The notes below the pieces were generated by a model. The model ran no database searches. It was not told the origin of the DNA and saw nothing but the letters and a program-made list of their open reading frames with translations. DNA of 64,000 bases from Nitrospirota bacterium (GTDB lineage: Bacteria > Nitrospirota > UBA9217). Both the position numbers and the translations under genes were made by a program. Within the stretch, counting starts at the first letter, position 1; each line of letters begins with the position of its first letter. The stretch is from positions 256,001-320,000 of the forward strand of contig CAWIYV010000011.1 in assembly GCA_963840455.1 (NCBI GenBank). Reading direction: 5' to 3'. This document shows positions 21,991 to 55,950 of this stretch, piece by piece.

Positions 21991-22129
21991 GCTCATTCGA
22001 TGCTTTTTTGTTATCACCCTCGCCAGATCTCAAGACCCTGATCCCGTCAGTTTCATCCCCCATTTTCCGTGCTCACAGGGGCCAACGCAACATCATGTCT
22101 GTCCTGTGCCAGGCTTAGGCTTTACCTGT

Positions 22130-22328: not shown

Positions 22329-22367
22329 GCGGGCGTTCATGCTGCAAAAAGAAAAGAATCACAATGC

Positions 22368-22426
22368 ATTGAACGACGAGTTGAGCCCCGCGCTGTAGAG
22401 CGCGGGACTCGAACGACTTGTTATTT
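22368..22426 (-). mobile_element. attC site (59-base element)
   Basis: Minus strand AAATAAC AAGTC GTTCGAGT CCCGCGCT ctac AGCGCGGG GCTCAAC TCGTC GTTCAAT: R'' overlaps the ORF stop, L''/L' boxes, central palindrome, R' GTT; 59 bp. Confidence 0.8.
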
Positions 22427-23140: not shown

Positions 23141-23220
23141 TATGTTTTATCCTCGAATAACCAATGATTGTCTAGCCGTCTCTGGCTAGTAAAACACGAA
23201 ATTCCGTTCTTTACCAGCCT

Positions 23221-23236
23221 AGCAAAAGGGATGCCA
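23221..23236 (-). promoter_or_regulatory. sigma54 (-24/-12) promoter facing the cassette
   Basis: TGGCATCCCTTTTGCT, GG-N10-GC. Confidence 0.65.
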
Positions 23237-23370
23237 AATTATGTGCGGCAGCTCTGGAACAAGTAGACATCCACATCTTCAGTTTGAAATGTGTACGCTT
23301 TGCCCGGTTATCAATATGCACATCAACAGGAAGGATCCAGCACTGCTATTTTCAACCTGATCTTACACAA

Positions 23371-23781
23371 TTAATTAGGATATTCAATTGTGACAATTCC
23401 ACTGGCATCCCCATTATAAAAATTTATGACAGAGATCTGCCATAGAGATCCCTTGTTGATATCCGCTGATGTGACGTTATAATTTATCGTATTAGGGGAA
23501 ATGCCATCATTCCTTGCGTAATATCCAACCTGCCCTGGCCCATTCAAAATAAGAGCCAATGTATTTGTTGTCCCTGTCCAAACTGCTGAGGCTGTAATAG
23601 TGCCAGCTGAATTTACTGTAAAGCCGCCGATATAAATAGAATTGCCACTGGTTGAGCTACCAAGTGATATTGTGCTAGATACAGTGTTAATAGACACATG
23701 AGAATTATTGTCTGTACCGCATGCCGTAAACGAAGCCACTATTAAGACACATCCCGCAACAATTAGCTGATATTTCGTCAT
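23371..23781 (-). CDS. AT-rich lipoprotein, beta-rich
   Basis: Lipobox FTAC; S/T/N/G-rich pattern suggesting a beta-sandwich. Confidence 0.7.
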   Translation of the reverse strand: MTKYQLIVAGCVLIVASFTACGTDNNSHVSINTVSSTISLGSSTSGNSIYIGGFTVNSAGTITASAVWTGTTNTLALILNGPGQVGYYARNDGISPNTINYNVTSADINKGSLWQISVINFYNGDASGIVTIEYPN

Positions 23782-24121
23782 AAGCTTTTCGCTCCCACCA
23801 TTATTATTTTATGCGTTCAATATTGATTATTGAGACACAGCATGTGCGAATAAGTATAATAATATGCTTGTAAAGTACAGACGAAAAATGGGGTATTTTA
23901 TGGGTAGATGATTATCGAATACAGTTTGCAACTTTAAGTATTGCAAGGAATGTTAACTTCAACATCTTCAGGAAGATGATCGCGCTCAACCTGAACAGAC
24001 CTGAACCGGGAGAGTTGGACGACCAGGGAAAGTATAGCGAACGACACGAATTAGATAAAGAAGAAAAGAAGGGTATTTTCGGGGGATGTACTTCTGCAAC
24101 AGATTGCTACGGTGAGGGCGT

Positions 24122-27784: not shown

Positions 27785-27848
27785 GGATGCTCGCAATGAT
27801 TGAGGCCGCTCCGTCGAGCGGCGTTGTTCCTGTACCCTGTACCCTGTC

Positions 27849-38130: not shown

Positions 38131-39288
38131 ATGAGCGAACTTGCCATCGAAAGAAAAGTGGATCTCGACGAGCTCAAGCGTGTCGGCATTATTGCGCAGA
38201 ACCAGAAGGACACCTACCTTATCCGGCTCAGGACCGTGGGCGGCGATTTGGGCGCTGATGAGCTAAAGACTATTACCCGCGTGGCAGAAAAGTACGGCCG
38301 CGGCGAGGTCCACCTCACGACGCGCCAGGCCGTGGAGATCCCCTTCGTGCATATCGATGATCTCGAAGCGGCGCGCACTGAGCTCGAGGAGAACGGCATC
38401 GTGCTCGGCGTATGCGGCCCACGGGGCCGCGGCATCGTGACCTGCCCTGGCACGGCGGTCTGCACATCGGCCATCATGGAGACCAAGGAGCTGGCCGCGG
38501 AGCTCGACAGCGCCTACTTCCGCCAGCCCGCTCCGCACAAGTTCAAGATCGGCGTCTCGGGCTGCCCGAACAGCTGCTCCAAGCCCATCGAGAACGACAT
38601 CGGCGTCATGGGCGGCGTCCTGCCCGGATGGGACAGGGACGCCTGCATCTCCTGCCGGCTCTGCGTCAGCATCTGCCCGGTCAATGCCATTGAGGAGAAG
38701 GACTCGGCGTTCGTCCTGAACGAGAAGAAGTGCATCTACTGCGGCCTTTGCATCAAGAACTGCTCGACCTCGGCATGGACAGCGAAGCAGACCGGCTACA
38801 CCCTGTTCCTTGGCGGCACCTTGGGCAAGAAGCCCAGGCTCGGCACGCGGGCGAAGGTCCTGATCGAAACAAAAGAAGAGCTCCTCGGGCATATTGAGAG
38901 CGCCTTCAAGTTCTATCTAGCGCACGGGAAGAAGAAGGAGCGCTTTGGCCACACCCTGGACCGCATCGGCGTTGACAAGGCCATAGCCGATATCTTTTCT
39001 AAAAAGGGCGGGGCTAATACCTCGGCTGACGCGCCACAGACCGCCTGCGGGCCGAAGAGCGCATTCCTCGACCTCCTCGGCGTCTGCTGCCCCATGAACT
39101 TCGTGCGAGCAAAGCTCGCCATCGAGAAGATAGATCCCGGCGAACGGCTCGAGATCCTGCTCGACGATGGAGAACCGATCGTCAACGTGAGCAGGAGTCT
39201 GAAGGACGAGGGGCACCGGGTCCTGAAGGTGGAGCCGGAGAACGGCCACTTCCGGCTGCTGGTAGAAAAACGGCAAGCATACGCATGA
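38131..39288 (+). CDS. Siroheme sulfite/nitrite reductase-like protein with a 2x[4Fe-4S] ferredoxin, fused to a C-terminal TusA/SirA sulfur carrier
   Basis: LTTRQ, CPGTAVC, SGCPNSC; CISCRLCVSICP and CIYCGLCIKNC; C-terminal LDLLGVCCPMNFVRAKL. Confidence 0.88.
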   Translation: MSELAIERKVDLDELKRVGIIAQNQKDTYLIRLRTVGGDLGADELKTITRVAEKYGRGEVHLTTRQAVEIPFVHIDDLEAARTELEENGIVLGVCGPRGRGIVTCPGTAVCTSAIMETKELAAELDSAYFRQPAPHKFKIGVSGCPNSCSKPIENDIGVMGGVLPGWDRDACISCRLCVSICPVNAIEEKDSAFVLNEKKCIYCGLCIKNCSTSAWTAKQTGYTLFLGGTLGKKPRLGTRAKVLIETKEELLGHIESAFKFYLAHGKKKERFGHTLDRIGVDKAIADIFSKKGGANTSADAPQTACGPKSAFLDLLGVCCPMNFVRAKLAIEKIDPGERLEILLDDGEPIVNVSRSLKDEGHRVLKVEPENGHFRLLVEKRQAYA

Positions 39289-39854
39289 TAAAAAGACGAT
39301 GGACAGCGAAGGATGCATTCTTGCCGCGGAAGCAGGAAGAGACTGACGATCCGGAGATACCCATGAAACGCCGGCTGTTCCTGTCCGGGAGCAATGCGGT
39401 CCGCCTGTTGTCAAACCTGCGCGCCGGGACAGGAATCTTCGTGCTGGCCAATGACGTGGACCGGACCCGTCGGTAAGGACCGTAGTGCGTATGTGGGCCG
39501 TGTCCTGAGGCGAGGAGGAGGTGCCGACCATTGTGCTGATACAAGCGGGAGCGCAGATGCCCTTCCTTATATAAATGGGTCTTCTCCTTCGCAAGTGGGT
39601 CGAGTATGCACGGCGATGACTTTTTCTGCACCCCGGCTCACAGGTCCGCGCAGGCATGCACTGCCGGTTCTGATACCAGGTCTATTCAGGCATCGCAGCT
39701 CTTCCCCTCGCCCGGCACAGCCGGGCTCGGCCGTGTCTGCCTGTCTTCGTGGTGGCACTGGCTATTACTGCTTCCGCATGCGTGTGCGTGGACCTGTTCA
39801 CGGGATGCAGGGGCCTTGGGAAAGGCAGAAGCTTGAGGCTTTACCCAAACCCCG

Positions 39855-40020
39855 CACGTCTCTGGAGCGGACCTATGCGTTTCTTGGGCACCCATCTTGG
39901 CCTAAGGCCGCGTCCCGCAGGGCGATGCGCATGTTCGAGGCCGACGGCCGAGTTTGCGCGATCGAGCGGACGTGGCCTTAGATGGGTCAAGAAAGGCATT
40001 AAGGACGCGAAAGAGATGTG
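39855..40020. repeat. Long imperfect palindrome (MITE/REP-like)
   Basis: ATGCgTTTCTTG..CCCATCT..AAGGCCgCGTCC ... GGACGtGGCCTT AGATGGG .CAAGAAAgGCAT; outer CACGTCTCT/AGAGATGTG. Confidence 0.7.
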
Positions 40021-40227
40021 CAAAAACATCCACAAGCAACCAGACACAATTGTCAGACACGTACTGCTCTAACAGACAAAGAGCTGTCATTTCACCCACT
40101 CAATAAGGAGAGGATCCTTATAAATCATCTAAACTCCTATACTCCGCGACGGTCCCTGTCGACCTTCCTCGATCGATCGTGTATTATGGTATATTCAATG
40201 ACAGGCGACCGGGTCGGGGGAGATGCT

Positions 40228-41388
40228 GTGGACGTCTATCTGGACAATAACGCTTCGACGAGGTTGGCTCCGGAGGTACTGGAGGCCATGCTGCCCTATC
40301 TGCGGGATCAGTACGGCAATGCCTCTTCCGCCCACTCACGGGGCCGGGAAGCGAAGAAGGCATTGGACCGCTCCCGGGAGACGCTTGCCCGCGTGCTCGG
40401 CGCATCGCAAGCAGAGTGCATCTGCTTCACCGGTTCGGGCACGGAGGCGATCAACCTGGCCATCAAGGGGGCCGCGTCCGCCCGGCGCGGGAAAGGGAAC
40501 CACATTGTCACGTCTGCCGTCGAGCATCCCGCGGTGCTGAATACCTGCAAAGCGATCCGGCCGCTCGGGTACGAAGTGACCTATGTGAAACCCGATTCGA
40601 CCGGCCGGGTCGCCGCCGGCTCCGTTGCCGAGGCGCTGAGGGCCGACACGATTCTGGTGTCGATCATGCAGGCCAATAACGAGACCGGGACCATTAATCC
40701 CGTCCGGGAGATCGGAACAATAGCGAAGGAGCGGAACGTCCTTTTTCATACCGACGCGGTTCAGAGCTTCTGCAGGCTTCCCGTCACCGTGGACGATCTG
40801 CACGTGGACCTGCTGTCGATATCGGCCCACAAGGTCCACGGCCCCAAGGGCGTGGGCGCGCTCTATATCCGGGAGGGGATCACGATCCATCCCCTGATCC
40901 ATGGCGGACGTCACGAGGGTAACCTTCGCGCCGGCACCGAGAACGTTGCGGGGATCGCCGGCATGGGCGAGGCAGTGCGGCTCAGCTGGCCGGCCCTGGA
41001 GAGGAACGGCCGCCGGATGAAGGCGCTCCGGGACAGGCTGGAGCATGGCCTGCGGGAGCGGGTCTCCGGCGTGACGCTCAACGGCCACCCGGACGAGAGG
41101 CTTCCCAATACGGTGAACCTGTCCTTCGAGAACATCGAGGCCCAGGCCTGCATCCTCGAGCTGGACCGCAGGGGAGTGGCGGTCTCGTCGGGATCGGCGT
41201 GCACCTCAGGCTCGGGTAAACCTTCCCACGTGCTTCTGGCCATGGGTATTCCCTGCGAGGCCTGCCGCGGTTCCCTCCGTTTTTCCCTGGGGACATTGAC
41301 CACCGACGAGGAGATCGATTACGTTCTTGAGATCGTGCCCGACGTCGTTTCGAAGCTGAGGGCCGCTTCGACCGCCGCAACAGCGTAA
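40228..41388 (+). CDS. iscS: Cysteine desulfurase (IscS/NifS class I)
   Basis: YLDNNAST, HTDAVQ, SAHKVHGPKG, SSGSACTS. Confidence 0.92.
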   Translation: MDVYLDNNASTRLAPEVLEAMLPYLRDQYGNASSAHSRGREAKKALDRSRETLARVLGASQAECICFTGSGTEAINLAIKGAASARRGKGNHIVTSAVEHPAVLNTCKAIRPLGYEVTYVKPDSTGRVAAGSVAEALRADTILVSIMQANNETGTINPVREIGTIAKERNVLFHTDAVQSFCRLPVTVDDLHVDLLSISAHKVHGPKGVGALYIREGITIHPLIHGGRHEGNLRAGTENVAGIAGMGEAVRLSWPALERNGRRMKALRDRLEHGLRERVSGVTLNGHPDERLPNTVNLSFENIEAQACILELDRRGVAVSSGSACTSGSGKPSHVLLAMGIPCEACRGSLRFSLGTLTTDEEIDYVLEIVPDVVSKLRAASTAATA

Positions 41389-41437
41389 ACGACGTTGATG
41401 AGATTGTCTTTTTCTCCTGGTATCATGCCTTCCACGT

Positions 41438-42367
41438 ATGAAGCCATCGTCACCTGAGAGGCGCAAGGCGCCAGCTGTATCGGCCCTGGACCTGATCGGC
41501 AATACGCCGCTCGTCCGGATCAGTAAGCTCGCCGCCCATCTCAACCCGGAAGTCCGTGTCTTTGCCAAGCTCGAGCGCGGTAACCCCGGCGGCTCAATCA
41601 AGGACCGCGCCGCCTTCCGCATGATCGAGGACGCCGAGGCTTCGGTCCTCCTGACCCATGACAGGGTCATCCTGGACTCCTCATCGGGCAACACCGGCAT
41701 CGCCTACGCCATGATCGGCGCGGTGAAAGGCTACCGCGTCAAGATCGTGATCCCCGAGAACGCCAGCGTCGAACGGAAGAAGATCATAGCCGGGTTCGGA
41801 GCGGAGCTGGTCTTCTCCAGCCCCTTCGAAGGCGCTGACGGCGCCATCAGGCTGGCAAAGGAGATCATCGAGGAGCACCCGGACCGCTACTTCCAGCCCG
41901 ACCAGTACAACAACCCCTCGAACCCGAAGGCCCATGAGCTCACCACCGGCCCCGAGGTCATCAGGCAGACCAACGGCAGCGTCACCCATTTCATCGCCTG
42001 CGTCGGAACCGGCGGCACGATCATGGGAACGGGACGTGCGCTCAGGAAGTTCGACCCCGCCATACGGGTCCTCTCCGTCCATCCCGACGACGCCATGCAC
42101 GGCATCGAAGGCACGAAGTACCTCGAAGAAGGCGCCATCGTGCCGGGTATCTTCGATAAGAACTTTCCCGACGAGCGGCTCATCGTTGGCACCGACGCGG
42201 CCTTCGACATGACGAAACGGCTGGCGTGCGAGGAAGGTCTGTTCGTGGGCACATCATCGGGCGCTGCACTTGCAGCGTCGCTGAGAGTCGCGGAAAAGCT
42301 GAAGCAGGGCGTTATTGTCGTACTGTTCCCCGACGGCGGGGATCGGTATTTGAGCAGGGAGATCTGA
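41438..42367 (+). CDS. cysM: PLP-dependent cysteine synthase (CysM-like)
   Basis: IGNTPLV, NPGGSIKDR, SSGNTG, GTGGT, PDGGDRYLS. Confidence 0.85.
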   Translation: MKPSSPERRKAPAVSALDLIGNTPLVRISKLAAHLNPEVRVFAKLERGNPGGSIKDRAAFRMIEDAEASVLLTHDRVILDSSSGNTGIAYAMIGAVKGYRVKIVIPENASVERKKIIAGFGAELVFSSPFEGADGAIRLAKEIIEEHPDRYFQPDQYNNPSNPKAHELTTGPEVIRQTNGSVTHFIACVGTGGTIMGTGRALRKFDPAIRVLSVHPDDAMHGIEGTKYLEEGAIVPGIFDKNFPDERLIVGTDAAFDMTKRLACEEGLFVGTSSGAALAASLRVAEKLKQGVIVVLFPDGGDRYLSREI

Positions 42368-42372
42368 AGACC

Positions 42373-42822
42373 ATGCGCCTATCACAGGAATCCATCGAAG
42401 CGATCTCGAAGCAGGCCGTCGCTGAGTATCCCTCCGAGTGCTGCGGCATCGTGACCGGCACCGCGGCAACGCAACGCGTCCACCCCTGCAAGAACAGGCA
42501 GGACGAGCTCCACGCGAAAGACCCGGAGCACCATCCGCGCACCAGCCGCGAGGCCTACGACATCGACCGGAAGGAGATGGAGCGGGTCTTCGCGGACGCG
42601 GCAGCGGCAGGCGAACAAATCCTCTGCTTCTACCACTCGCACATCGACTGCGGCGCTTATTTTTCCCAGATGGACAAGGACGTATTGACGGTCTTCGGCG
42701 AGCCGGAGCATCCGGAGGCGGTGCATGTGGTGGTCTCGGTGCAGGACCGGCACGTGAAGGAGATCGCAGGATACCGCTGGGACGGCGCGACACAGAACTT
42801 TGTGATCCTGTCGGTCGCCTAA
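42373..42822 (+). CDS. JAMM/M67 (Mec-like) sulfur-carrier peptidase
   Basis: YPSECCG, FYHSHID..AYFSQMD (HxH-x7-S-x2-D). Confidence 0.88.
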   Translation: MRLSQESIEAISKQAVAEYPSECCGIVTGTAATQRVHPCKNRQDELHAKDPEHHPRTSREAYDIDRKEMERVFADAAAAGEQILCFYHSHIDCGAYFSQMDKDVLTVFGEPEHPEAVHVVVSVQDRHVKEIAGYRWDGATQNFVILSVA

Positions 42823-46043: not shown

Positions 46044-46445
46044 CTACTTCGCCTCGTCCTTGCCGTTTCCCTTCGCCTTTGCCTTCGATCGTTCGTACAG
46101 GCCGTTCAGGTCCTCAAGGGACTTATCCATGTTCTTCTTCGCCTTTTCCCATGTTTCGTTCGAGGACTTCCTGAGCTCATTCAGGCTGCCCTTGGCCTCC
46201 CCCTGCTGCTTCTTGAACTCCTCGTAGAGCTTGTTCAGCTCGGCCTGCGTCTTTCCCTCGGCCTTCTTGGCCTCCGACGAGAGCTCATTCATCTTCTTGT
46301 CCAGCTCCGTCAGTCTCTTTTCCGCCGCCTTTTCTTCCTCCTGCCGCTGCGTGGCAGCCGCCGGTGTCTCCGCCTTGACCGTCGCGAGGGAAAATACTGC
46401 CAGCACTGCAGTGCAAATAATCGCCATACCGAATTTTCCTAACAT
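46044..46445 (-). CDS. Secreted K/E-rich helical hypothetical protein
   Basis: Signal peptide, coiled-coil composition, AGAGG RBS. Confidence 0.75.
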   Translation of the reverse strand: MLGKFGMAIICTAVLAVFSLATVKAETPAAATQRQEEEKAAEKRLTELDKKMNELSSEAKKAEGKTQAELNKLYEEFKKQQGEAKGSLNELRKSSNETWEKAKKNMDKSLEDLNGLYERSKAKAKGNGKDEAK

Positions 46446-46966
46446 TGGTCGTACCTCTCTTTCTTTCCACTCAATACATTATATTAATGCACGCCTATTG
46501 ATTCCAGTGCTCCGTGAAGTTGTGTTCTTCCTGTTCTCGTGTCGTCAAGAATTTTCTATTATACAAATATGCAAAGTTCACCTACTAGAGTGGAATGGAC
46601 GATTCATCAACAGACGTGCATTATTCTGGTTCTAGTTTACACATCAATGTGACAGCTGAGACATGGACCTCAGCCCCTCGATTTAGAACGACAAGTTATT
46701 TCTTCGTAATTATTCCTTATTGAAATTGATGGTGGCGACGGTAATTTAATAGTTTGTCCAACCCCTCCATCTTCCGTGATTCTTTTTTCGAGATATTTCG
46801 ACATACCCCAAATAACTACCCCGAAAATGCTGGATGTTGTAAAACACTATTGCATGGCATAAGACCTAGTTGGACTAATCCGGTCTTCGTAGCACATCGC
46901 ACATCTATCCTCTACGTTTATTAAATATCGTTGGAAAGTCTTTATGATCTTCAGCAATAGGTTACC

Positions 46967-47683
46967 TTATCTGGCAACCTTGAGTTTCTCGGCGAAGTAT
47001 ACGGGCAACCCGCTCATCACAATCGCCTGTGATGCTTTCTCCACATCATAAGGGACACGCAGAAATTCAACCTTTACCGTCTCGGCGGTTATATCCATCA
47101 AGGCAACACAGGCCCTCGGATCGCCGTCTTTCGGCTTGCCAACACTCCCCGCATTGATGAAGATTTTCCCGCCTTGGTCCCTACGGTAGGGCTTATGCGT
47201 ATGGCCGTAGATGAGAATGTCGGCATTGACTTTTTCGGCCATTTCATGGAAGAACTTCTCCGGCCGGTTCTCAAACCAATAGAGGTTGTTCTTTCGCGGC
47301 GTCGCATGAAAGAGCGCTATTTTTTTACCATGAATCGCTAAGAGGATCTCGGGCGGAAGGTTTCCCAAAAACTCCTTTGTTTTCTTCGTAGCATGTGCCT
47401 TTGTCCAGGCGAATGACAGGTTCGCCATCTCTTCCTGCACAGGGTCTTCGGCCTTACACCCGCAATGCTCGCGGTCATGCGCTACAGTCTCGTCGTAGTT
47501 TCCCTGTACGCCTTCAATAGTATGCTCTATCATGAATTCGACGACCTCGTTCACAAAGGGCGAATACCCGCCCAGATCGCCGAGGTGGTAGATTTTCTCC
47601 GAACCCGCAACCTGCGCCGCAGCATAAGCCGCGTTCAGGGCCTCGATATTTCCGTGTATGTCACCGAATACGGCGAACTTCAT
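46967..47683 (-). CDS. Calcineurin-like metallophosphoesterase
   Basis: GDIHGN, LGD, GNYD, GHTH, NAGSVGKPKDGDPRA; CGC motif. Confidence 0.9.
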   Translation of the reverse strand: MKFAVFGDIHGNIEALNAAYAAAQVAGSEKIYHLGDLGGYSPFVNEVVEFMIEHTIEGVQGNYDETVAHDREHCGCKAEDPVQEEMANLSFAWTKAHATKKTKEFLGNLPPEILLAIHGKKIALFHATPRKNNLYWFENRPEKFFHEMAEKVNADILIYGHTHKPYRRDQGGKIFINAGSVGKPKDGDPRACVALMDITAETVKVEFLRVPYDVEKASQAIVMSGLPVYFAEKLKVAR

Positions 47684-47771
47684 CTGATTACCTCAAGAAA
47701 CTTGGTCTGACGAACTGCATCAGAATAGTTGCCCTTGAGCGAGAACATGACGATGGTAGATAATATCGTGT

Positions 47772-48470
47772 TCACTCCTCATCGCTGAAACTGTATCCGA
47801 CGCCGCGGACGGTCCGGATATAATTGACGGCGCCTGCCTGTTCCAGTTCCGCCCTGAGCCTCCGGATATGCACATCCACGGTCCGTGATTCGATGAACGC
47901 ATCTCCCTTCCAGACGGCACCAAGGATCTGGTCGCGGCTGAAGACCTTGCCTTTCCGCTCCATCAGGAAGCGGAGCAAACGGAACTCAGTGGGCGAGAGC
48001 TCCACGACCTGCTCCCCGGCCTTGACGCGGTGGCGCTCTAGGTCAACCTCGATGCCGCCGGCGCGGAGCACCTTCCTGCCGGTCATGGCGCCCTCCACGC
48101 GGCGGAGCACGCTCTTGACCCGGGCCACGAGCTCACGGACGCTGAAGGGCTTCGTGATGTAGTCGTCGGCGCCCGTCTCAAGGCCCATCACCTTGTCCAT
48201 CTCTTCGGACCGCGCGGTCAGCATGATGATGGGGATGTGGGCGGTCTCGGGATCGTTCTTGAAGATGCGGCAGAGCTCCATGCCCGAGAGCCCGGGCAAC
48301 ATGAGGTCCAGCAGAATCAGCTGGTAGGGCCGCTCGCGCACCATGCGGAGCGCCGCATCTCCGGTCTGGGCCTCTTCGACCCAAAAACCTTCCTTCTTGA
48401 GGTTGTAGGTGACGAGCTGCAGGATGTCCTGCTCGTCGTCCACGACCAGGATGCGCTGTTTCGGCTCCAT
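47772..48470 (-). CDS. phoB: PhoB-like OmpR-family response regulator
   Basis: Receiver plus winged helix (LSPTEFRLL, SRDQIL..VW, RTVDVHIRRLR, TVRGVGY); next to Pho boxes and pstS. Confidence 0.85.
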   Translation of the reverse strand: MEPKQRILVVDDEQDILQLVTYNLKKEGFWVEEAQTGDAALRMVRERPYQLILLDLMLPGLSGMELCRIFKNDPETAHIPIIMLTARSEEMDKVMGLETGADDYITKPFSVRELVARVKSVLRRVEGAMTGRKVLRAGGIEVDLERHRVKAGEQVVELSPTEFRLLRFLMERKGKVFSRDQILGAVWKGDAFIESRTVDVHIRRLRAELEQAGAVNYIRTVRGVGYSFSDEE

Positions 48471-48539
48471 GGGAGGATAGTACGGGAAATTTTTCACCGG
48501 GGCAAGTGGAAATCCCTCTCACCCTCACACTTCATCAGT

Positions 48540-48584
48540 CTGTCACATCCCTGTAACGGAACGGCAACAATTGGCTGGTATGGT
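48540..48584 (+). promoter_or_regulatory. Pho-box promoter 1
   Basis: CTGTCAC 48540, CTGTAAC 48551, CGGCAAC 48562 (11-bp period); -10 TATGGT 10 bp downstream. Confidence 0.8.
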
Positions 48585-48615
48585 AACGCTCAATAGCGTG
48601 GGGAACAGCTTTACC

Positions 48616-49038
48616 ATGAACACCTTCAACAAATTTATCGACATCCTGATCAAGTGCATGATCCCCCTGGTCATCATGGCCCTGCTCTTGGGCATTGCCC
48701 GGGTGGTCCTCGACCTGCGCGTGGTCTTTGCCAGCCCCACGGTCGCTGTGGGATTCGACCTCCTGATCACGAACATCCTGTCCCTTTTTGTGGTCATCGA
48801 GCTTCTGAAGAGCGTTCTAGATTACTTCGAGAATCACCGGATCAAGCTGACCTTCATCACCGACGCGGCGCTGGTCTTCGTCCTGCGGGAGATTATGATC
48901 GGCCTCTTCCAGCACGCCATGGAGGCCCGCGAGGTGCTTGCGCTGGCGGCGCTCATCTTGGTGATTGGCGGCGTCCGGACCCTGGCGGTCCTGTTCTCAC
49001 CTGACCGGCACGAGCCGGCGGAACGGAGCGCGCCATGA
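48616..49038 (+). CDS. PsiE-family phosphate-starvation-inducible membrane protein
   Basis: Four TM segments; LFVVIELLKS..YF..H.I, DAALVFVLREI. Confidence 0.8.
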   Translation: MNTFNKFIDILIKCMIPLVIMALLLGIARVVLDLRVVFASPTVAVGFDLLITNILSLFVVIELLKSVLDYFENHRIKLTFITDAALVFVLREIMIGLFQHAMEAREVLALAALILVIGGVRTLAVLFSPDRHEPAERSAP

Positions 49039-49127
49039 ACCGGAAGTTGGTCGACACGGTCGAACGGATCGCGCTCACTCTCAGCCTGATAGGTGGCGTC
49101 CTGATCATCGTCTATCACTGGCTGTGA
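49035..49127 (+). CDS. 30-aa single-TM peptide
   Basis: ATGA overlap with the psiE stop; MNRKLVDTVERIALTLSLIGGVLIIVYHWL. Confidence 0.5.
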   Translation: MNRKLVDTVERIALTLSLIGGVLIIVYHWL

Positions 49128-49172
49128 TCGCCGCGGTCAGGCGCATTCATTCATACTCCCGGGAGGTATCCC

Positions 49173-49304
49173 ATGCTGCTCCTGATCACGACTGTCTGTG
49201 TTGTGGTGCTCGCCGCGGCGCTGGCCGTTCGCGCACCAAGCACCTTCCTCTTCGACCTCATCAATGACAGCCTCTGCCATGAGATCACGGAATCCCGGCG
49301 CTAA
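49173..49304 (+). CDS. 43-aa hydrophobic peptide
   Basis: GGGAGG RBS; MLLLITTVCVVVLAAALAVRAPSTFLFDLINDSLCHEITESRR. Confidence 0.5.
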   Translation: MLLLITTVCVVVLAAALAVRAPSTFLFDLINDSLCHEITESRR

Positions 49305-50550
49305 CTGCCCTCGGTTCCCGCCCGGCTTTCAATGGGGCGTGGCTACCTCCGCGTTTCAGCTCGAGGGCTCGCCCCACGCCGACTGGACCGGATGGGATGA
49401 CGCCCTGCGAACCCATCCTGGCGTGACGAACCACTACGAGCTGTACAGAGACGACCTTCGTCTCTTGAAGGACCTGGGCGTGAACGCGTACCGTTTCTCG
49501 ATCGAGTGGAGCAGGATCCAGCCTCGCAAGGACACCTGGGACGAGGCAGCCATCCTCCATTATCAGGAGATCGTGGACATCATCCGCGGCTATGGCATCG
49601 AGCCGATGGTCACGCTCCATCACTTCACCCACCCCCGCTGGTTCCTCGAGCAGCATCCCTGGCATAAGAATTCGAGCAGGGAAAAGTTCTTGCGCTTCGT
49701 TGAGAAGATCGCGTCGTCGATCACTGGCGTCCGGGACTGGATCACTTTTAACGAGCCCTATGTGATCCTGTTGGGCGGCTACCTGGAAGGTTGCACGCCG
49801 CCGGGGATCCGGGACGTCAAGCTCTCCATGATGGCCCTGCGAAACATTTTCATCAGCCATGGCAAGGCCTACGACATCATTCGTGCCCATGTCCCCGGCG
49901 CCCGCGTCAGCATCGCCCACAACATGTCGGTCTTCGCGCCTTGGAAGCGATGGAATCCCCTGGACCGGCTGCTTTCCCGAACAGCAAAATATTTCTACAA
50001 TCACTCCATCATCGACGCGTTCCGGACCGGGACCTTCGTAATCAAGTTCCCTTTTTCCCGTCCCCTGACGATCGAGCTCCCCATCAAGGGAAAGCTGGAC
50101 TTTTTCGGCGTAAACTACTATACCCGGATCCACCTCCGGTTCAATCCCTTCAGGAAGATGGGCGTCGAGCTCAGGAATCGCGATCTCGATGGCAGGGGTC
50201 TGACCAATATGGGATGGGAGATCCATCCGCGGGGGTTGGCCCGCGTCCTGCGGTACGCCGCGCGCCTCAACGTGCCGCTCGTGATCACTGAGAATGGGAT
50301 CGCTACACATGACAGCCAGTTGAAAACCCGCTACCTCCGCGAACACGTGGACGTGATCGAAGAGTGCCTGCGCAACGGCCTCGATATACGGGGCTACTTC
50401 TACTGGACACTGATCGACAACTACGAATGGCTTCACGGCCTCGACGCGCGGTTCGGGCTTTACCGTGTGGACTTCGAGACGCTTCGACGCGCCCCCACTT
50501 CGGCGGCTACCTACTACACCTATCTCATCGAAAGCCGTTCAGAATTGTAA
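49279..50550 (+). CDS. Glycoside hydrolase family 1 (beta-glucosidase)
   Basis: WGVATSAFQLEG, YRFSIEWSRI, TFNEP, ITENG, DNYEW..G...RFG; start uncertain. Confidence 0.92.
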   Translation: MRSRNPGANCPRFPPGFQWGVATSAFQLEGSPHADWTGWDDALRTHPGVTNHYELYRDDLRLLKDLGVNAYRFSIEWSRIQPRKDTWDEAAILHYQEIVDIIRGYGIEPMVTLHHFTHPRWFLEQHPWHKNSSREKFLRFVEKIASSITGVRDWITFNEPYVILLGGYLEGCTPPGIRDVKLSMMALRNIFISHGKAYDIIRAHVPGARVSIAHNMSVFAPWKRWNPLDRLLSRTAKYFYNHSIIDAFRTGTFVIKFPFSRPLTIELPIKGKLDFFGVNYYTRIHLRFNPFRKMGVELRNRDLDGRGLTNMGWEIHPRGLARVLRYAARLNVPLVITENGIATHDSQLKTRYLREHVDVIEECLRNGLDIRGYFYWTLIDNYEWLHGLDARFGLYRVDFETLRRAPTSAATYYTYLIESRSEL

Positions 50551-50600
50551 CGTTTTATTTATCTACCTGTTATATTCCTGTAACAAAGCTAAGGTATCAT
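50545..50600 (+). promoter_or_regulatory. Pho-box promoter 2
   Basis: TTGTAAC 50545, CTGTTAT 50567, CTGTAAC 50578; -10 TATCAT 10 bp downstream. Confidence 0.8.
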
Positions 50601-50720
50601 GCCGCCCATGAACAACCGTATGACAAACCTTCCGACAGCACCCGAGGACGCTGCGCCGCATGACGGCAATGAGAACGCGGGTGGCATGCTTCTAACCAAT
50701 CAACGCTCAAGGAGGATACT

Positions 50721-51932
50721 ATGGCAAACCTGTTCTGGCTCTGCGCGGGCCTGACGGCCGTCGGCCTCGTGATCCATGCGCTCCAGATTATCGCGGTCAG
50801 GCGGTCTCTGGCGCCAAGCACCGATGCCGACCAACCCTGCCCCCCAGCACCCCTTCCTCCCATCTCGGTCCTGAAGCCCCTCAAGGGTCTGGACGACAAC
50901 CTCTTTGATAACCTCGACAGCTTCTGCCGCCAGTCCTATCAGGCCTATGAGATCATCTTTTCGCTGCAAGACCACAACGATCCGGCCTACAAGATCGCCC
51001 GCATGGTGAAAGACCGGCACCCGGACAAGGATATCCGGATAGTTATCGAATCCTGCAGTCGAGGCATGAATCCCAAGGTGAACAACCTGATCCCTGCTTA
51101 CCGGGCCAGCCGGTTCGATACCGTCCTGATCAGTGACAGCAATGTCTTGGTTGGACCGGATTACCTGCGGTCGATCGGCCGCCATCTAAACGACCCTTCC
51201 GTGGGACTGGTAACGAGCCTCATTCGCGGCACTGGCGGACGGACCTTCGGGTCCCTCTTCGAGAACCTGCACCTCAATTCGTTCATTATCGGCAGCGTCT
51301 GTTTCCTCGACCGGTTCCTCCGGATGCCCTGCGTAATCGGCAAGTCTATGCTCATGCGCAAGAAAGACCTGGAGGCTATCGGCGGGTTCGACGCGGTCAA
51401 GGACGTGCTGGCTGAGGACTTCATCATCGGAAGGAACATGCATGCGGCTGGCCGCCGCGTCGTCGTCGACAACTACCTGATCAATAATGAAAACCAGTAC
51501 TGGGGTGTCCGCCGGTTCCTGAACCGTCACACAAGGTGGGCCAAGCTGAGGTGGAAGATTGGCGGTGCGCGATACCTGGTCGAGCTCCTGGCGAACCCCA
51601 TCTTCATCGCCTGCCTCCCGCTGATCTGGAATGGCTTTACCGGCCCTGCTATCACGCTGGCGCTGTGCGCCGCGGTACTCAAGATCGCCGGCGACCATCA
51701 TCTCGGACTAAGGACAGGCGCCGCCCTATCCTGCGCCGCCTACCTGATCGTGCCGGTCAAAGACCTGCTCATCGGTGTCCTCTGGTTCGTACCGCTCCTG
51801 TCCGACACCGTAATCTGGCGCGGGAACCGGTACCGGATCGTGGAGGATACCCGCCTTGTCCCCGTCGAGGAGACCGGCCTCCTGTCGTGGCGCTATCGCC
51901 TTGCAAGTTCGATTCGGGAGCGCTTCGCATGA
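50721..51932 (+). CDS. Ceramide glucosyltransferase / HpnI-like GT21 enzyme
   Basis: N-terminal TM, SVLKPLKG, NPKVNNL, ISDSN, GKSM, LAEDF, RHTRW, WRG. Confidence 0.88.
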   Translation: MANLFWLCAGLTAVGLVIHALQIIAVRRSLAPSTDADQPCPPAPLPPISVLKPLKGLDDNLFDNLDSFCRQSYQAYEIIFSLQDHNDPAYKIARMVKDRHPDKDIRIVIESCSRGMNPKVNNLIPAYRASRFDTVLISDSNVLVGPDYLRSIGRHLNDPSVGLVTSLIRGTGGRTFGSLFENLHLNSFIIGSVCFLDRFLRMPCVIGKSMLMRKKDLEAIGGFDAVKDVLAEDFIIGRNMHAAGRRVVVDNYLINNENQYWGVRRFLNRHTRWAKLRWKIGGARYLVELLANPIFIACLPLIWNGFTGPAITLALCAAVLKIAGDHHLGLRTGAALSCAAYLIVPVKDLLIGVLWFVPLLSDTVIWRGNRYRIVEDTRLVPVEETGLLSWRYRLASSIRERFA

Positions 51933-51958
51933 CCGGAATGACCCAGCAGGCTGGCCGT

Positions 51959-52014
51959 TCGTCATGCAATGTTCATCCTCCTGTAATGCTTCTGTAACCG
52001 GCCCGTGATAACGT
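51959..52014 (+). promoter_or_regulatory. Pho-box promoter 3
   Basis: TCGTCAT 51959, TGTTCAT 51970, CTGTAAT 51981, CTGTAAC 51992; -10 TAACGT 10 bp downstream. Confidence 0.75.
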
Positions 52015-52022
52015 ATTGCACA

Positions 52023-52715
52023 ATGCTCCTGTGTGATTTTCATATCCATACGAACTACTCCGACGGCTCCCTGGAGCTGGAGAAGACGGTGGACATATTC
52101 GGGCAGGCCGGCTTCGATGTGATTGCGATCACGGACCATGTTGTGAATGGGGACAATACAATCGGGAAGGTGACCCGCGCACTTGACCTCTCCGTCACCG
52201 GCGCAAACTTCGACGGTTATCTTGCGCACATCCGGAGCGAGGCAGCGCGCGCCTGGGACAAGTACGGCATGTTGGTGATTCCGGGCGTGGAGATCAGCAA
52301 AAACTACTTCTCTTCGGAACGTTCGGCCCACATCCTCCTTCTTGACATCAAAGAATTCGTCCCCGCCTGCTTGGACTACGAGGAGCTGTTCCGGGAGGCG
52401 CGGCGGCAGGACACGATCACAGTGGCATGCCATCCGCACACCACGCCGAAGATAGCCGAGAAGGACACTCTGTACCTCTGGAACAACCGCGAGAAGTACG
52501 CCAAGCACATCGATGCCTGGGAAGTGGCGAACCGTGACGACGTTTTCAACGTGGTGAGCCTGAAGCGGTATCCCTACATCGCGAACAGTGATTTCCACAA
52601 GGCACGCCACCTCTACTCGTGGAAGACGCTGCTGAACTGCGACAAGAACGTCGAGGCAGTGAAGCAGTGCATACGCCACAACCGCGGCGTGGCGATAACG
52701 TTGTTCAGGAACTGA
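52023..52715 (+). CDS. PHP-domain phosphoesterase
   Basis: DFHIHTNYSDG, AITDH, PGVE, CHPH, NSDFH. Confidence 0.88.
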   Translation: MLLCDFHIHTNYSDGSLELEKTVDIFGQAGFDVIAITDHVVNGDNTIGKVTRALDLSVTGANFDGYLAHIRSEAARAWDKYGMLVIPGVEISKNYFSSERSAHILLLDIKEFVPACLDYEELFREARRQDTITVACHPHTTPKIAEKDTLYLWNNREKYAKHIDAWEVANRDDVFNVVSLKRYPYIANSDFHKARHLYSWKTLLNCDKNVEAVKQCIRHNRGVAITLFRN

Positions 52716-52731
52716 TCCCGAGGAAGGAACG

Positions 52732-53820
52732 ATGCACGAACTGGTGTTGATCGTAGAGGACGAAAAGGACATCGCGCAGCTTTTGCGTTACAACCTACAG
52801 AAGGCGGGGTACCGCACCGTCGTCGCCTACGACGGCGACCAGGCGCTCAGCGTCGAGCGGTTCGGCAAGCCCGACCTGGTCCTCCTGGACATCATGCTGC
52901 CCGAACGCGACGGATGGGAGGTCTGCCGGCGCATGCGCGCAAGCGAGCAGTCTGAGACGACGCCCATCATCATGATCACGGCCCTGGACGCAGAAGAGTC
53001 CCGCCTCCGCGGCCTCCAAATCGGTGCTGACGACTACATCACCAAGCCGTTCTCGGTTCGCGAGGTGCTGCTCAAGGTCCGGAAACTGCTCGACCGGTCC
53101 AATGAGCTCCGGGCCCACCGCGTGCGCCGCTGCGAGGCCGAGTCCCAGATCTCCTACCTCGTCCATGAGCTAAAGAATAGCCTGTCGATCATCGGTGGAT
53201 ACACCTTGCTTGCAAGCGAGCGGGATGACGGGTGCGGCTACTGGGAACGCATTTCCATGACAACGGAATATATGGACCAGATTCTCAGCGATGCGTCGAT
53301 CCTTGTCCGCCTGGAAAAGGGTGCCTCCCCTCCTCCCTTGGAGCAGTTCGCCCTCCATGAGGTAATCGAGGACACGCTGGGTGCGCTCCGGCTCACCACA
53401 GGCGACAGAGGAGTTACTTTGCATCTTGCCGGCGGGACTGGTTGCCGGGTCTGGGGCGAACAGCGCGCTGTCCGTCAGATCGCGACAAACTTGCTCTCGA
53501 ACGCGGTCAAGTATAACCGCACGGGAGGCGCAGTCTGGGTCCGGATTGACGAACAGGGCAGCGGGGTCGACCTGTCGGTGACAGATGAGGGGCCCGGGAT
53601 AGCGCCGGATCAACGGCAGCGGATTTTCGAGAAGTACTACCGCTGCCCAGGGTCGGAGCATGTCAAGGGATCGGGGATTGGCCTCTACGTCGTCAAAATG
53701 CTTACCGAGAGTATCGGCGGTACCGTTCGCGTCGCCTCGGACAAGGCGGGCGGCACCACGTTCACGGTCTCCTTCTGCAGGGCGGATGATGCCGTTCCGG
53801 CCATCCGGTCCGCCAGGTGA
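52732..53820 (+). CDS. Receiver-histidine kinase hybrid (no TM sensor)
   Basis: OmpR-like receiver, H-box VHELKNSL, NLLSNAVKY, DEGPGI, GSGIGL. Confidence 0.9.
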   Translation: MHELVLIVEDEKDIAQLLRYNLQKAGYRTVVAYDGDQALSVERFGKPDLVLLDIMLPERDGWEVCRRMRASEQSETTPIIMITALDAEESRLRGLQIGADDYITKPFSVREVLLKVRKLLDRSNELRAHRVRRCEAESQISYLVHELKNSLSIIGGYTLLASERDDGCGYWERISMTTEYMDQILSDASILVRLEKGASPPPLEQFALHEVIEDTLGALRLTTGDRGVTLHLAGGTGCRVWGEQRAVRQIATNLLSNAVKYNRTGGAVWVRIDEQGSGVDLSVTDEGPGIAPDQRQRIFEKYYRCPGSEHVKGSGIGLYVVKMLTESIGGTVRVASDKAGGTTFTVSFCRADDAVPAIRSAR

Positions 53821-53867
53821 GCTGGCACACGGGCACCCGGCATTTCAACGACCACAAGGAGGTCCCT

Positions 53868-54290
53868 ATGGGAAACCGCAAGAAACGCATTCTGGTCATC
53901 GACGACGATACCGACCACCTGTTCCTTGCCCGGGAATTCCTTGCCCGGGAGGGATACGAGGTGCTGACGCACCAGAGCCCCTTCGGGGTCACCGGGCTGA
54001 TCCAGGCCGCAGAACCTGACCTGGTGCTGCTGGACGTCAATATGCCGTCGCTTCCCGGCGATGACCTCGCAGCGTTCATCAAGGCCGACGAGCGAACGCG
54101 ACACGTTCCTATTGTCCTTTACTCGTCCACTGACGAGGACCACCTCAGGAGCACGGTCGTGCGGCACCGCCTGGACGGGTACATCGCCAAAGGCGACACC
54201 GCCGATCTTCGTATGAAGGTTGGGTACTTTCTGCAAATGCACGTGTGTGACATCGTCTCGCACCGCAGGTCTCTATACGCCGTCGAGTAG
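53868..54290 (+). CDS. Single-domain response regulator
   Basis: LVIDDD, LLDVNMP, K; RBS AAGGAGG. Confidence 0.88.
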   Translation: MGNRKKRILVIDDDTDHLFLAREFLAREGYEVLTHQSPFGVTGLIQAAEPDLVLLDVNMPSLPGDDLAAFIKADERTRHVPIVLYSSTDEDHLRSTVVRHRLDGYIAKGDTADLRMKVGYFLQMHVCDIVSHRRSLYAVE

Positions 54291-54355
54291 ATCCATTTAG
54301 CAGCTGCCGCCGGCGCGTTCCAACATGATCCGTAGCCGCATGAGATGACCCATGA

Positions 54356-54400
54356 TTGTCATATTCTTGTAATCGGATTGTAACAACCACAGCGTATAGT
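54356..54400 (+). promoter_or_regulatory. Pho-box promoter 4
   Basis: TTGTCAT 54356, TTGTAAT 54367, TTGTAAC 54378; -10 TATAGT 10 bp downstream. Confidence 0.85.
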
Positions 54401-54435
54401 GGTGAAGTTTAAAATATCATAAGGAGGAATTGAAG

Positions 54436-55446
54436 ATGAAGAAAACAGTAGCAATCATTATGGTGCTGATGCTTGCCGCCGGTATCGGTGTGGTGCAAGC
54501 GGCAGAGACCTTGAACGGCGCCGGGGCAACCTTCCCCTACCCGATCTACTCTGCCTGGGCGTTCGATTACAACAAGGTCAGTGGCGTGCAGCTCAACTAC
54601 CAGTCCATCGGCTCGGGCGGCGGGATCAAGCAGATCACCGAGCGCACCGTGGACTTCGGCGCTTCGGACAAGCCGCTCAAGCCAGAGGAGCTCGCCAAGG
54701 ACAAGCTCCTGCAGTTCCCAGCGGTCGTGGGCGGTGTGGTCTTTGTCGTGAACATCGAGGGAATCAAGGAAGGCCAGCTGAAGCTCGACGGCGACACGGC
54801 ATGCAAAATCTTCCTGGGCGATATCAAGAAGTGGAACGACAAGCAGATTGCGGGCATGAACGCCGGACTGAAGCTGCCGGACGCCGAGATCACGGTCGTG
54901 CGCCGCTCCGATGGTTCGGGCACCACAGCCATCTTCACCGATTATCTGAATGGCGTCTGCCCAGCCTGGAAGGACAAGGTCGGCAGCGGAACCTCGGTCA
55001 ACTGGCCGGTCGGTATCGGCGGCAAGGGGAACGAAGGTGTTTCGAACTACGTCATCAAGACGGCGAACTCCATCGGCTACGTGGAATTCGCCTATGCCAA
55101 GCAGAACAAGATGGTCCACACGAAGCTCAAGAACAAGGCCGGGTCCTTCGTGGAACCGAACTTCGAGAGCTTCGAGGACGCTGCCGAGACCGGGACCTTT
55201 GATCCGCAGCAGGGCTTCTACCTTTGGCTGACCAACGCGCCGGGCAAGAACGCCTGGCCGATCGCCGGCGCTACCTTCATCCTGCTCGCCAAAGAAAAGA
55301 CCGACTCGAACAAAAAGGTCGTGAAGTTCTATGACTGGGCGTTCCAGAACGGCGACGCCAAGGCGAAGGAGCTCGTATACGTGCCCCTGCCGAAGACCCT
55401 AAAAGACAAGATCCGGGGCTATTGGAAGGCGAACGGAATCATGTAA
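54436..55446 (+). CDS. pstS: Phosphate ABC transporter substrate-binding protein
   Basis: GAGATFP, YQSIGSGGG, DFGASD, RSDGSGTT, GKGNEGV. Confidence 0.96.
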   Translation: MKKTVAIIMVLMLAAGIGVVQAAETLNGAGATFPYPIYSAWAFDYNKVSGVQLNYQSIGSGGGIKQITERTVDFGASDKPLKPEELAKDKLLQFPAVVGGVVFVVNIEGIKEGQLKLDGDTACKIFLGDIKKWNDKQIAGMNAGLKLPDAEITVVRRSDGSGTTAIFTDYLNGVCPAWKDKVGSGTSVNWPVGIGGKGNEGVSNYVIKTANSIGYVEFAYAKQNKMVHTKLKNKAGSFVEPNFESFEDAAETGTFDPQQGFYLWLTNAPGKNAWPIAGATFILLAKEKTDSNKKVVKFYDWAFQNGDAKAKELVYVPLPKTLKDKIRGYWKANGIM

Positions 55447-55474
55447 CGACTGTACGGGACGAGAGTAAACAGAC

Positions 55475-55509
55475 GAGCTGGGTACATAAAAGTACCTGGC
55501 TCTTTTTTT
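55475..55509 (+). terminator. Intrinsic terminator after pstS
   Basis: GAGCTGGGTAC-ataaaa-GTACCTGGCTC followed by a T-run. Confidence 0.8.
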
Positions 55510-55950
55510 ACTAAAACGATTTTCCAGACACCGCTGAAGCGTGTGTTAATTGTGCCCGATGTGTTCAGGCCGAGCGTGGAGGACTCAAGGATCGTCCGTG
55601 CCATGCCCCTGAAACCGTGGCCACTCACCACGTTTGTCGTAGTCAATGCGCCGCAGGGCCGACAGCACGGGATTATTTGACATGGGACGCTGAAGTGAAC
55701 GGGCATAGGGAAACACATAGCGGGCGGCGGCATTGAACCCGCATCCGAATTCCATCAGCATTCGATGATACTCTTCTTCTCGTTGAAAATTACATATTTC
55801 ATCACGATACCAAAAGTGCAGTTAACAGGAAGTAGATCACCCGCCGACTATAACATACTATCAGTTAGCCAAACAGCCCTAGGATCTCACCCCAGACTGA
55901 ACGGGCAGTACTTCCCAAAGTTGATGATCAGCGGCGTATGTACGGCACAC

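Follow-up and report, generated by a model that had tools for sequence, protein, structure and literature searches.

Replacement of phospholipids by phosphorus-free lipids is a major microbial answer to phosphate scarcity, and its diacylglycerol route is known mainly via the phosphoesterase PlcP. In the described operons, plcP lies immediately upstream of an agt- or pgt-type glycosyltransferase gene behind a Pho box, and PlcP supplies diacylglycerol (PMC4796936). A Pho box is predicted for Pgt, a member of GT21 that produces beta-linked glycosyl-diacylglycerols under phosphate deprivation (PMC3972451, PMC8231724), and the enzymes of Agrobacterium tumefaciens and Mesorhizobium loti accept ceramide also (PMC3972451). 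We have investigated a 64,000-nucleotide stretch of a Nitrospirota bacterium genome (assembly GCA_963840455.1, contig CAWIYV010000011.1, positions 256,001 to 320,000, hereafter the window), in which a Pho-regulon cluster contains genes for a GT21 glycosyltransferase, a PHP-domain phosphoesterase and a GH1 beta-glycosidase, referred to below as GT21, PHP and GH1. We consider it probable, on the basis of sequence comparison, that the cluster encodes a PhoB-controlled module for phosphorus-free glycolipids in which PHP takes the place of PlcP in the PlcP-Agt/Pgt logic.

The likeness to the PlcP-Agt/Pgt operons of Sinorhizobium, Phaeobacter, SAR11 and Mesorhizobium lies in the order of phosphoesterase followed by glycosyltransferase, in the Pho box and in the proposed logic, phospholipid being converted to diacylglycerol and then to glycolipid under phosphate starvation. 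The phosphoesterase-first order is found in relatives of the cluster, whereas in the window GT21 precedes PHP and each has its own box. PlcP belongs to the calcineurin-like metallophosphoesterase family, whereas the partner enzyme in the window is assigned to PHP (PF02811), not to Metallophos, and does not classify as a PlcP; the metallophosphoesterase encoded nearby is of YfcE type and is linked to the pair in only 9 of 80 related loci. The lineage differs as well, and GH1 and a receiver-kinase module are attached here. Pgt and the window enzyme have CAZy family GT21 in common, a likeness of family and description. The initial annotation of this DNA had known of no described PhoB-controlled combination of GT21, GH1 and PHP. 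Pho-boxed GT21 (Pgt) and plcP-glycosyltransferase operons are published, Pho-controlled GT21 glycolipid synthesis being already known, so that apparent novelty is confined to the partners PHP and GH1. Among the papers listed by searches of a literature collection without most subscription journals, none connects a PHP-domain enzyme or such a GH1 with Pho-controlled glycolipid synthesis, none deals with the PHP-glycosyltransferase fusions described below, and none of those on Nitrospirae lipids under phosphate limitation has the term 'nitrospirae'; TM0559, the solved relative of PHP, is mentioned in two papers, no listed title or abstract dealing with its function.

The PHP-GT21 pair in related genomes and the properties of the enzymes

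Related loci were collected by searching genome contigs with a GT21 alignment, and the analysis covers the nearest relatives, the best 80 of 323 confirmed loci, of which 77 bear Nitrospirota-lineage names in their titles; gene presence was scored by tblastn with the window's proteins. The closest relatives of the window GT21 are Nitrospirota and Thermodesulfovibrionales proteins. PHP is encoded in 79 of the 80 loci, at 65–79% identity, and in 76 its gene immediately precedes GT21. The PHP + GT21 pair is the functional core, and the order in the window, GH1-GT21-PHP, represents a rearranged form. A GH1 gene occurs in 58 loci; of the 69 loci whose upstream sequence reaches 2.4 kb or more, 56 have it, and 37 of these have the compact arrangement GH1-PHP-GT21. 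PstS is encoded in 23 loci, PhoB in 18, PsiE in 14 and the metallophosphoesterase in the 9 mentioned above, a homologue of the latter (at least 55% identity) following GT21 directly in L002, L014 and L025, and any Pho marker gene is found in 51 of the 80. The initial annotation had suggested a neighbourhood search for GT21, GH1 and PHP occurring together with phoB or pstS, and had stated beforehand that its reading would fall if the cluster were not conserved elsewhere; the counts above are the outcome of that search, and the adjacency of PHP and GT21 shows the cluster to be conserved.

PHP is matched over its full length by TM0559 (PDB 2ANU; residues 5–235, E 8.7e-66), a Thermotoga maritima protein from structural genomics that is of the same PHP type, and TM0559 is also the top match in a fold search with the predicted PHP model. 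Residues H7, H9, D14, D38, H39, E90, H103, H137, H139, D190 and H192, which we take to be the metal ligands, are invariant in 24 sequences, the conserved His/Asp/Glu residues being intact in the window enzyme. No match to PHP was present in the plasmid collection, and a protein-atlas search returned only generic 'PHP domain' clusters. Longer proteins with PHP homology are abundant, 619 matches being obtained, and glycosyltransferase domains are present in 117 of the best 120. These fusions are ~660 residues in length, with a C-terminal part of the PHP type (47–53% identity over 99–100% of PHP) and an N-terminal part for which matches to NF010135 (diglucosyl-diacylglycerol synthase), to MGD1 of plants (structure 4wyi, E 1.7e-25) and to 9wde, a processive diacylglycerol beta-glucosyltransferase (E 3.6e-20), were obtained. 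As glycosyltransferase they contain a GT28/MGDG-synthase-like enzyme instead of GT21; enzymes of the former kind have the GT-B fold. The source labels are Verrucomicrobiota, Pedosphaera, Limisphaerales and Sulfopaludibacter, with some labelled Acidobacteriota, and the proteins are named either 'processive 1,2-diacylglycerol beta-glucosyltransferase' or 'PHP domain-containing protein' in the databases. An exhaustive PHP profile search gave a similar picture, 12 of the 19 best cluster representatives being such long proteins; in the 19, Pfam detects GT28/GT1-type domains in six, PHP with GT21 in one (P0287), PHP with a receiver and kinase in one (P0285), PHP only in ten and nothing in one. Combined, the operon and fusion data join this PHP type to three glycosyltransferase families, two of which are known lipid glycosyltransferase families. 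The fusions point to the same two-step chemistry as that proposed for the separate PHP and GT21 proteins, probably carried out by a single polypeptide.

GT21 is covered by PF13506 over 174 of 174 positions and matches a ceramide glucosyltransferase structure (26qf, E 3e-43), many of its relatives bearing the name ceramide glucosyltransferase in databases. The DDN, SDS, AED and RHTRW segments, presumably the catalytic motifs, are invariant in 17 sequences, and the protein has one N-terminal and several C-terminal hydrophobic segments. The HpnI model is the best NCBIfam match at 272 bits, below its cut-off of 310, so that GT21 is not assigned to HpnI, and weak matches to PgaC and NodC are also observed. 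Only HpnI genes of Burkholderia plasmids (30% identity) and unannotated rhizobial homologues (~30%) were detected in the plasmid collection with GT21, including a Sinorhizobium fredii homologue (31% identical) whose neighbours are uninformative. Diacylglycerol or an ether analogue as the predicted acceptor fits the PHP-glycosyltransferase fusions.

The GH1 open reading frame (ORF) of 450 residues contains the catalytic motifs NEP, from residue 185, and ENG, from residue 365, and no signal peptide or membrane segment is predicted in it. The best of 106 solved GH1 sequences matching at E ≤1e-40 is 1VFF, the BGPh enzyme of Pyrococcus horikoshii, aligned end to end at 286 bits, with ordinary beta-glucosidases reaching at most 245 bits; the equivalog cut-off for BGL is not reached (290 bits vs 478.5). 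BGPh is archaeal and the likeness is one of relative similarity only. BGPh is associated with the membrane and favours glucosides with long alkyl chains, and steryl glucosides are hydrolysed by one of its close relatives (PMC4687101). SFR2, a plant GH1 enzyme that transglycosylates galactolipids (PMC4011751, PMC11525325), resembles the window enzyme in family membership only. Because GH1 would be co-induced with the synthase, trimming or transglycosylation of the SFR2 kind seems as likely as simple turnover of the product. A 43-residue ORF at 49173-49304 was considered as a frameshifted membrane anchor of GH1 and rejected, as orthologues start 9–12 residues before FPxxFQWG and have no hydrophobic N-terminus, and as the ORF is not conserved.

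Among 52 loci in which the gene close before GH1 was recorded, this gene is psiE in 12 and phoB or phoR in 9. In 10 of the 52 (e.g. L003, L004 and L005) GH1 is directly preceded by a gene for a CBS-domain EAL-GGDEF protein, an adjacency which suggests a link of cyclic-di-GMP signalling to the cluster.

Lipid-related genes are frequent near the pair in relatives. All ORFs of the loci were clustered and representatives of 31 of the commonest clusters were scanned. An OlsF-like gene (~617 residues) directly follows GT21 in 21 loci, its product matching NF052615 end to end at 391–410 bits, below the cut-off of 620; OlsF is a bifunctional ornithine-lipid synthase. OlsB-like and OlsA-like proteins are encoded by separate genes in 6 loci, OlsF or OlsB being present in 27 of the 80, and a flippase-like gene (TIGR00374) is found in 12. 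The aminolipid synthase and flippase-like genes share a directon with the PHP-GT21 genes, and PstCAB, PhoU, a PhoH-PIN protein and PhoR-like kinases occupy much of the remaining neighbour space. These neighbours therefore place the relatives' GT21 within a Pho 'supercluster' in which genes for making another phosphorus-free lipid are included.

Three families of small ORFs (~70–90 residues, no family match) also occur near GT21 or pstS in relatives, examples being L061:12882-13151, L023:7749-7961 and L062:11290-11535, and for one of these families strong Pho boxes were observed in 13 of the 15 cases. The window contains no clear homologue of them, the only similarity being a weak 28-residue match at 12714-12797 (E 5e-5).

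Pho boxes of the window and of related loci

Each of four intergenic sites in the cluster contains three or four heptamers on an 11-bp register, with a TAnnnT hexamer located exactly 10 bp beyond the last of them. The Pho-box consensus of 7-bp direct repeats of the CTGTCAT type with an 11-bp period is that of E. coli. By sequence, the four sites qualify as predicted Pho boxes, having at least two repeats at 11 bp that end 10 bp before a -10 element and replace a -35 element, and a sigma-70 consensus scan detected no -35/-10 promoter at any of the four. The two-heptamer pattern YTGTMAYN4YTGTMAY has four exact matches in the window, all on the + strand, compared with 0.01 expected, and none of 100 shuffles reached four; the site at 50567 has one mismatch to the pattern. 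A weight matrix built solely from 67 sites in the related loci, from other genomes, gave five matches of at least 8 bits over both strands of the whole 64 kb, all five inside the four promoters. Thus the promoters described in the initial annotation at 48540, 50545, 51959 and 54356, with their heptamers and -10 spacing, are borne out by sequence and statistics. Upstream of phoB, no Pho box was detected on the minus strand (47772-48570).

Pho boxes are also associated with the same genes in relatives. A site above the 99th percentile of background precedes 18 of 24 pstS and 7 of 14 psiE genes. Upstream regions of PHP exceed the 95th percentile with the Pho-box matrix in 67 of 74 testable loci and the 99th in 16, the arrangement visible in the sequences being three heptamers and, after ~10 bp, a box resembling TATNAT, with an ATG 20–40 nt further downstream. 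GH1 and OlsF have a box of their own in 1 of 54 and 0 of 21 cases, respectively. In L001, the locus closest to the window, a degenerate four-heptamer box occupies the place of the window's GT21 box.

Proposed mechanism and alternative explanations

The proposal is of a chromosomal Pho-regulon cluster, in a Nitrospirota bacterium of Thermodesulfovibrionales type, that would respond to phosphate starvation. Phosphorylated PhoB would bind the four boxes, which take the place of the -35 element, and switch on psiE-peptide-GH1, GT21, the PHP, receiver-kinase and lone receiver genes, and pstS. Because the gene order mirrors the plcP-glycosyltransferase logic, PHP is proposed to make the acceptor and GT21 to glycosylate it. 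Soluble PHP would most likely yield diacylglycerol or an ether analogue, either by removing phosphate from phosphatidate or by removing the phospho-head group from phospholipids, with phosphorus being freed. Membrane-bound GT21 would transfer a hexose from a uridine diphosphate (UDP) sugar to this acceptor, giving a phosphorus-free beta-glycolipid, a step suggested by the family and by published Pgt. Cytoplasmic GH1, of the lipid-glycoside type, most likely trims, transglycosylates or recycles the head group of the beta-glycolipid, this being the weakest step. The receiver-kinase and the lone receiver may act as a Pho-induced accessory phosphorelay, and PstS would raise phosphate uptake. Tentatively, the proposal can be widened: the TM0559-type PHP would represent an unrecognised but widespread class of lipid phosphoesterases (phospholipase C or phosphatidate phosphatase) that feed diacylglycerol or diether glycerol to glycolipid synthases, GH1 would be an SFR2-like lipid transglycosidase or trimmer, and the module would be a candidate genetic source of the monoglycosyl diethers that are attributed to Thermodesulfovibrionia in subsurface fluids poor in phosphate.

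Several observations weigh against this glycolipid module. The window contains no OlsF, flippase or diacylglycerol-related gene, and the weight matrix was derived from matches to the consensus of the initial annotation itself. The locus closest to the window, L001, reads GH1-GT21-OlsF-flippase and lacks PHP on its 6.4-kb contig, and GH1 is missing from 13 of those 69 loci in which 2.4 kb or more of sequence is available upstream. GT21 is only ~30% identical to any annotated relative retrieved, no membrane segment is predicted in PHP, and co-induction of GH1 with the synthase, as predicted from the boxes, fits simple 'turnover' poorly. The structural neighbours of PHP after TM0559 are the PHP domain of RNase AM (E 1.4e-6) and Cv1693 with bound adenosine monophosphate (E 2.8e-4), these matches to nucleotide-acting enzymes being weak (E 1e-6 to 3e-4, TM-score 0.31–0.45) and obtained with a model of moderate quality (pLDDT 71.7).

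As the nearest characterised structural relatives of PHP act on nucleotides, hydrolysis of UDP or pAp is a live rival, in which PHP would be a nucleotide phosphoesterase that removes the by-product UDP or scavenges phosphate from pAp, the acceptor of GT21 coming from elsewhere. Consistent with this are, besides the RNase AM and Cv1693 matches, weak NCBIfam matches to nucleoside bisphosphate phosphatase and RNase RNM, the solubility of the protein, and its fusion to enzymes that use UDP-sugars, which is equally compatible with UDP removal. However, UDP hydrolysis gives no net phosphorus, the synteny mirrors that of plcP followed by a glycosyltransferase (PMC4796936), the family matches are far below their cut-offs (32 vs 400 bits), and the fold matches are weak and were obtained with a moderate model; we regard this explanation as unlikely. 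To be judged similarly improbable is a ceramide acceptor, which would make the product a phosphate-starvation glycosphingolipid and leave PHP to release ceramide from a phosphosphingolipid or to serve another role. GT21 is the ceramide glucosyltransferase family, in agreement with the solved-enzyme match and the database names, and Pgt, as noted from PMC3972451, accepts ceramide too; PhoB-dependent ceramide glycosylation is described in Caulobacter (PMC6445935). Environmental lipidomics ties glycosyl ether and ceramide lipids of anaerobic Nitrospirota to phosphate limitation: in serpentinite fluids limited in phosphate, a correlation of monoglycosyl ceramides with Thermodesulfovibrionia is described, sphingolipid gene potential being cited for Thermodesulfovibrio, but monoglycosyl diether glycerol lipids are likewise linked to Thermodesulfovibrionia there (PMC10667739). 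Moreover, no serine-palmitoyltransferase-like family is present among the annotated neighbour families (representatives of 31 of the commonest clusters, 80 loci), and fusions join the PHP partner to glycosyltransferases of the diacylglycerol type.

Two further explanations appear less credible still. The genes could be unrelated Pho members that lie side by side, PHP and the metallophosphoesterase scavenging organic phosphate and GT21 and GH1 building and trimming a beta-glucan or another envelope polysaccharide. GT21 and processive GT2 synthases do have a (Q/R)xxRW-type motif in common, PgaC and NodC are matched weakly, and GH1 enzymes usually act on soluble beta-glucosides; adjacency of PHP and GT21 in 76 of 80 loci, repeated fusion of PHP to lipid glycosyltransferases, and the presence of aminolipid synthase and flippase-like genes in the same directon argue against such a chance assembly, which we consider quite unlikely. 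An HpnI-like hopanoid glycosyltransferase acting on bacteriohopanetetrol, for which HpnI being both the best NCBIfam model and the best plasmid match would speak, is very unlikely indeed: the HpnI score is under the cut-off, neither the window nor the annotated neighbour families of the 80 loci include an hpn or shc gene, and the partners of the gene are Pho genes, OlsF and PHP. Of the acceptors listed in the initial annotation (diacylglycerol, ceramide, hopanoid), the last is thus poorly supported. The central idea of the glycolipid remodelling module that it proposed is favoured by the conserved, Pho-boxed PHP-GT21 pair, the lipid-related neighbours and the fusions to diacylglycerol glycosyltransferases, its Pho-boxed GT21 not being new; its removal of head groups by PHP and turnover of the product by GH1 stay at the level of proposals.

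If the phosphorus-free glycolipid module operates as proposed, it would provide a function for the structural-genomics orphan 2ANU and for hundreds of fused PHP-glycosyltransferase proteins, an instance of an unrelated enzyme type swapped in within a conserved operon logic, and marker genes for the production of glycolipids in anaerobic Nitrospirota.

Features of the cluster and of the surrounding window

Gene identities were established by Pfam and NCBIfam scans of ORF translations within the 64-kb window, and all genes named in the initial annotation were confirmed in this way (Table 1). The metallophosphoesterase gene is located downstream of phoB on the same strand, and the first heptamer of the box at 50545 overlaps the GH1 stop codon. 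The start of psiE is placed at ATG 48616, because the alternative TTG 48571 sits upstream of the -10 box; the starts of PHP and pstS are most likely ATG 52023, with a leader that is very short or absent, and ATG 54436, respectively, and that of GH1 is most likely ATG 49264 or 49279, as predicted by alignment with orthologues.

Table 1. Genes, predicted Pho boxes and terminator of the cluster (window coordinates; the heptamers of each box are followed by the 10-bp spacing and the -10 hexamer)
Feature	Position	Strand	Evidence and remarks
YfcE-type metallophosphoesterase	46967..47683	-	Metallophos_2 96.5 bits; TIGR00040 YfcE 68.2 bits (cut-off 56.25); G+C 51.9%
phoB response regulator	47772..48497	-	TIGR02154 PhoB 304.9 bits, above cut-off 296.2; divergent from psiE
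Pho box, 3 heptamers, promoter of psiE-peptide-GH1	48540..48584	+	48540 CTGTCAC, 48551 CTGTAAC, 48562 CGGCAAC, 10 bp, TATGGT; matrix 22.4 bits
psiE, phosphate-starvation-inducible membrane protein	48616..49038	+	Pfam PsiE 47 bits; ORF open from 48571
30-residue hydrophobic peptide	49035..49127	+	overlaps psiE stop codon; tblastn matches in relatives
GH1 beta-glycosidase	49264..50550	+	Pfam GH1 264 bits; ORF open from 49198
Pho box, 4 heptamers, promoter of GT21	50545..50600	+	50545 TTGTAAC, 50556 TATTTAT, 50567 CTGTTAT, 50578 CTGTAAC, 10 bp, TATCAT; matrix 21.2 bits
GT21 membrane glycosyltransferase, proposed glycolipid synthase	50721..51932	+	PF13506 163 bits
Pho box, 4 heptamers, promoter of PHP, receiver-kinase and receiver genes	51959..52014	+	51959 TCGTCAT, 51970 TGTTCAT, 51981 CTGTAAT, 51992 CTGTAAC, 10 bp, TAACGT; matrix 21.6 bits
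TM0559-type PHP metallophosphoesterase, proposed lipid-acceptor supplier	52023..52715	+	2ANU match; ORF open from 52005
REC-HisKA-HATPase protein without sensor domain	52732..53820	+	Pfam
Stand-alone receiver (REC only)	53817..54290	+	Response_reg 64.8 bits; overlaps stop codon of preceding REC-HisKA-HATPase gene
Pho box, 3 perfect heptamers, promoter of pstS	54356..54400	+	54356 TTGTCAT, 54367 TTGTAAT, 54378 TTGTAAC, 10 bp, TATAGT; matrix 24.8 and 15.5 bits
pstS phosphate-binding protein	54436..55446	+	NF008171 PstS 402 bits, cut-off 339; ORF open from 54430
Intrinsic terminator after pstS	55475..55512	+	11-bp stem, then T run

PsiE has several hydrophobic segments. Of the two peptides placed after it in the initial annotation, the 30-residue one is conserved, following psiE in L035, L004, L047, L037 and L042 (tblastn, E 8e-6 to 1.3), and the 43-residue one is not. 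In the receiver-kinase protein, the receiver part is PhoB-like and the kinase core PhoR/PnpS-like according to NCBIfam. The fusion protein P0285 (646 residues) combines PHP, REC, HisKA and HATPase domains in the same order as the PHP and receiver-kinase genes of the window (52023-53820), which hints at a possible functional link between the PHP enzyme and the phosphorelay.

The cluster had also been described as an island. This holds in the sense of a Pho-regulon cluster and not in that of foreign origin, which is rejected on G+C content: the core genes have 57–62% G+C and the window 59.8%. Outside the cluster, the window has the gene content of an ordinary chromosome, with rho, prfA, a murA-like gene, hisD, hisG, metG, holB, tmk, trpE, tsaD and others. 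No pstCAB, phoU or phoR gene is present within the 64 kb, and pstS stands alone. A search of the window for OlsF, OlsB, the flippase, PhoR, PhoU, PstCAB, PhoH and the small Pho-boxed ORFs of relatives found none of them, and matched only kinase-core and EAL-domain similarity in addition to the weak small-ORF match mentioned above. An Rfam scan of the window gave no RNA family at gathering score. Just outside the cluster, an sll1863-family stress protein gene (46044-46445, - strand) is followed by a 520-bp intergenic region, 46446-46966, of 39.5% G+C.

Other observations in the window concern genes away from the cluster. The region 22000-24000 has 42.7% G+C, compared with 59.8% overall, contains two ORFs without a Pfam match (22421-23140 and 23371-23781, both on the - strand), and may be a small acquired insert. 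A chrB-chrA pair for chromate resistance is located at 18792-21067. The genes at 38131-42822 encode a sulfite-reductase-like/TusA fusion, then a class-V aminotransferase of the cysteine-desulfurase type, a PALP enzyme and a Prok-JAB protein, which looks like a sulfur-carrier-based cysteine or thiocarboxylate pathway. The methionyl-tRNA synthetase ORF, 25784-28315 (- strand), is 843 residues long, with its first synthetase-domain match from residue 191, and overlaps a PSP1-domain ORF at 27849-29216 (- strand); its listed start may be too far upstream. A single ORF at 24122-25492 (- strand) combines TatD-type DNase and radical-SAM domains, an unusual fusion.

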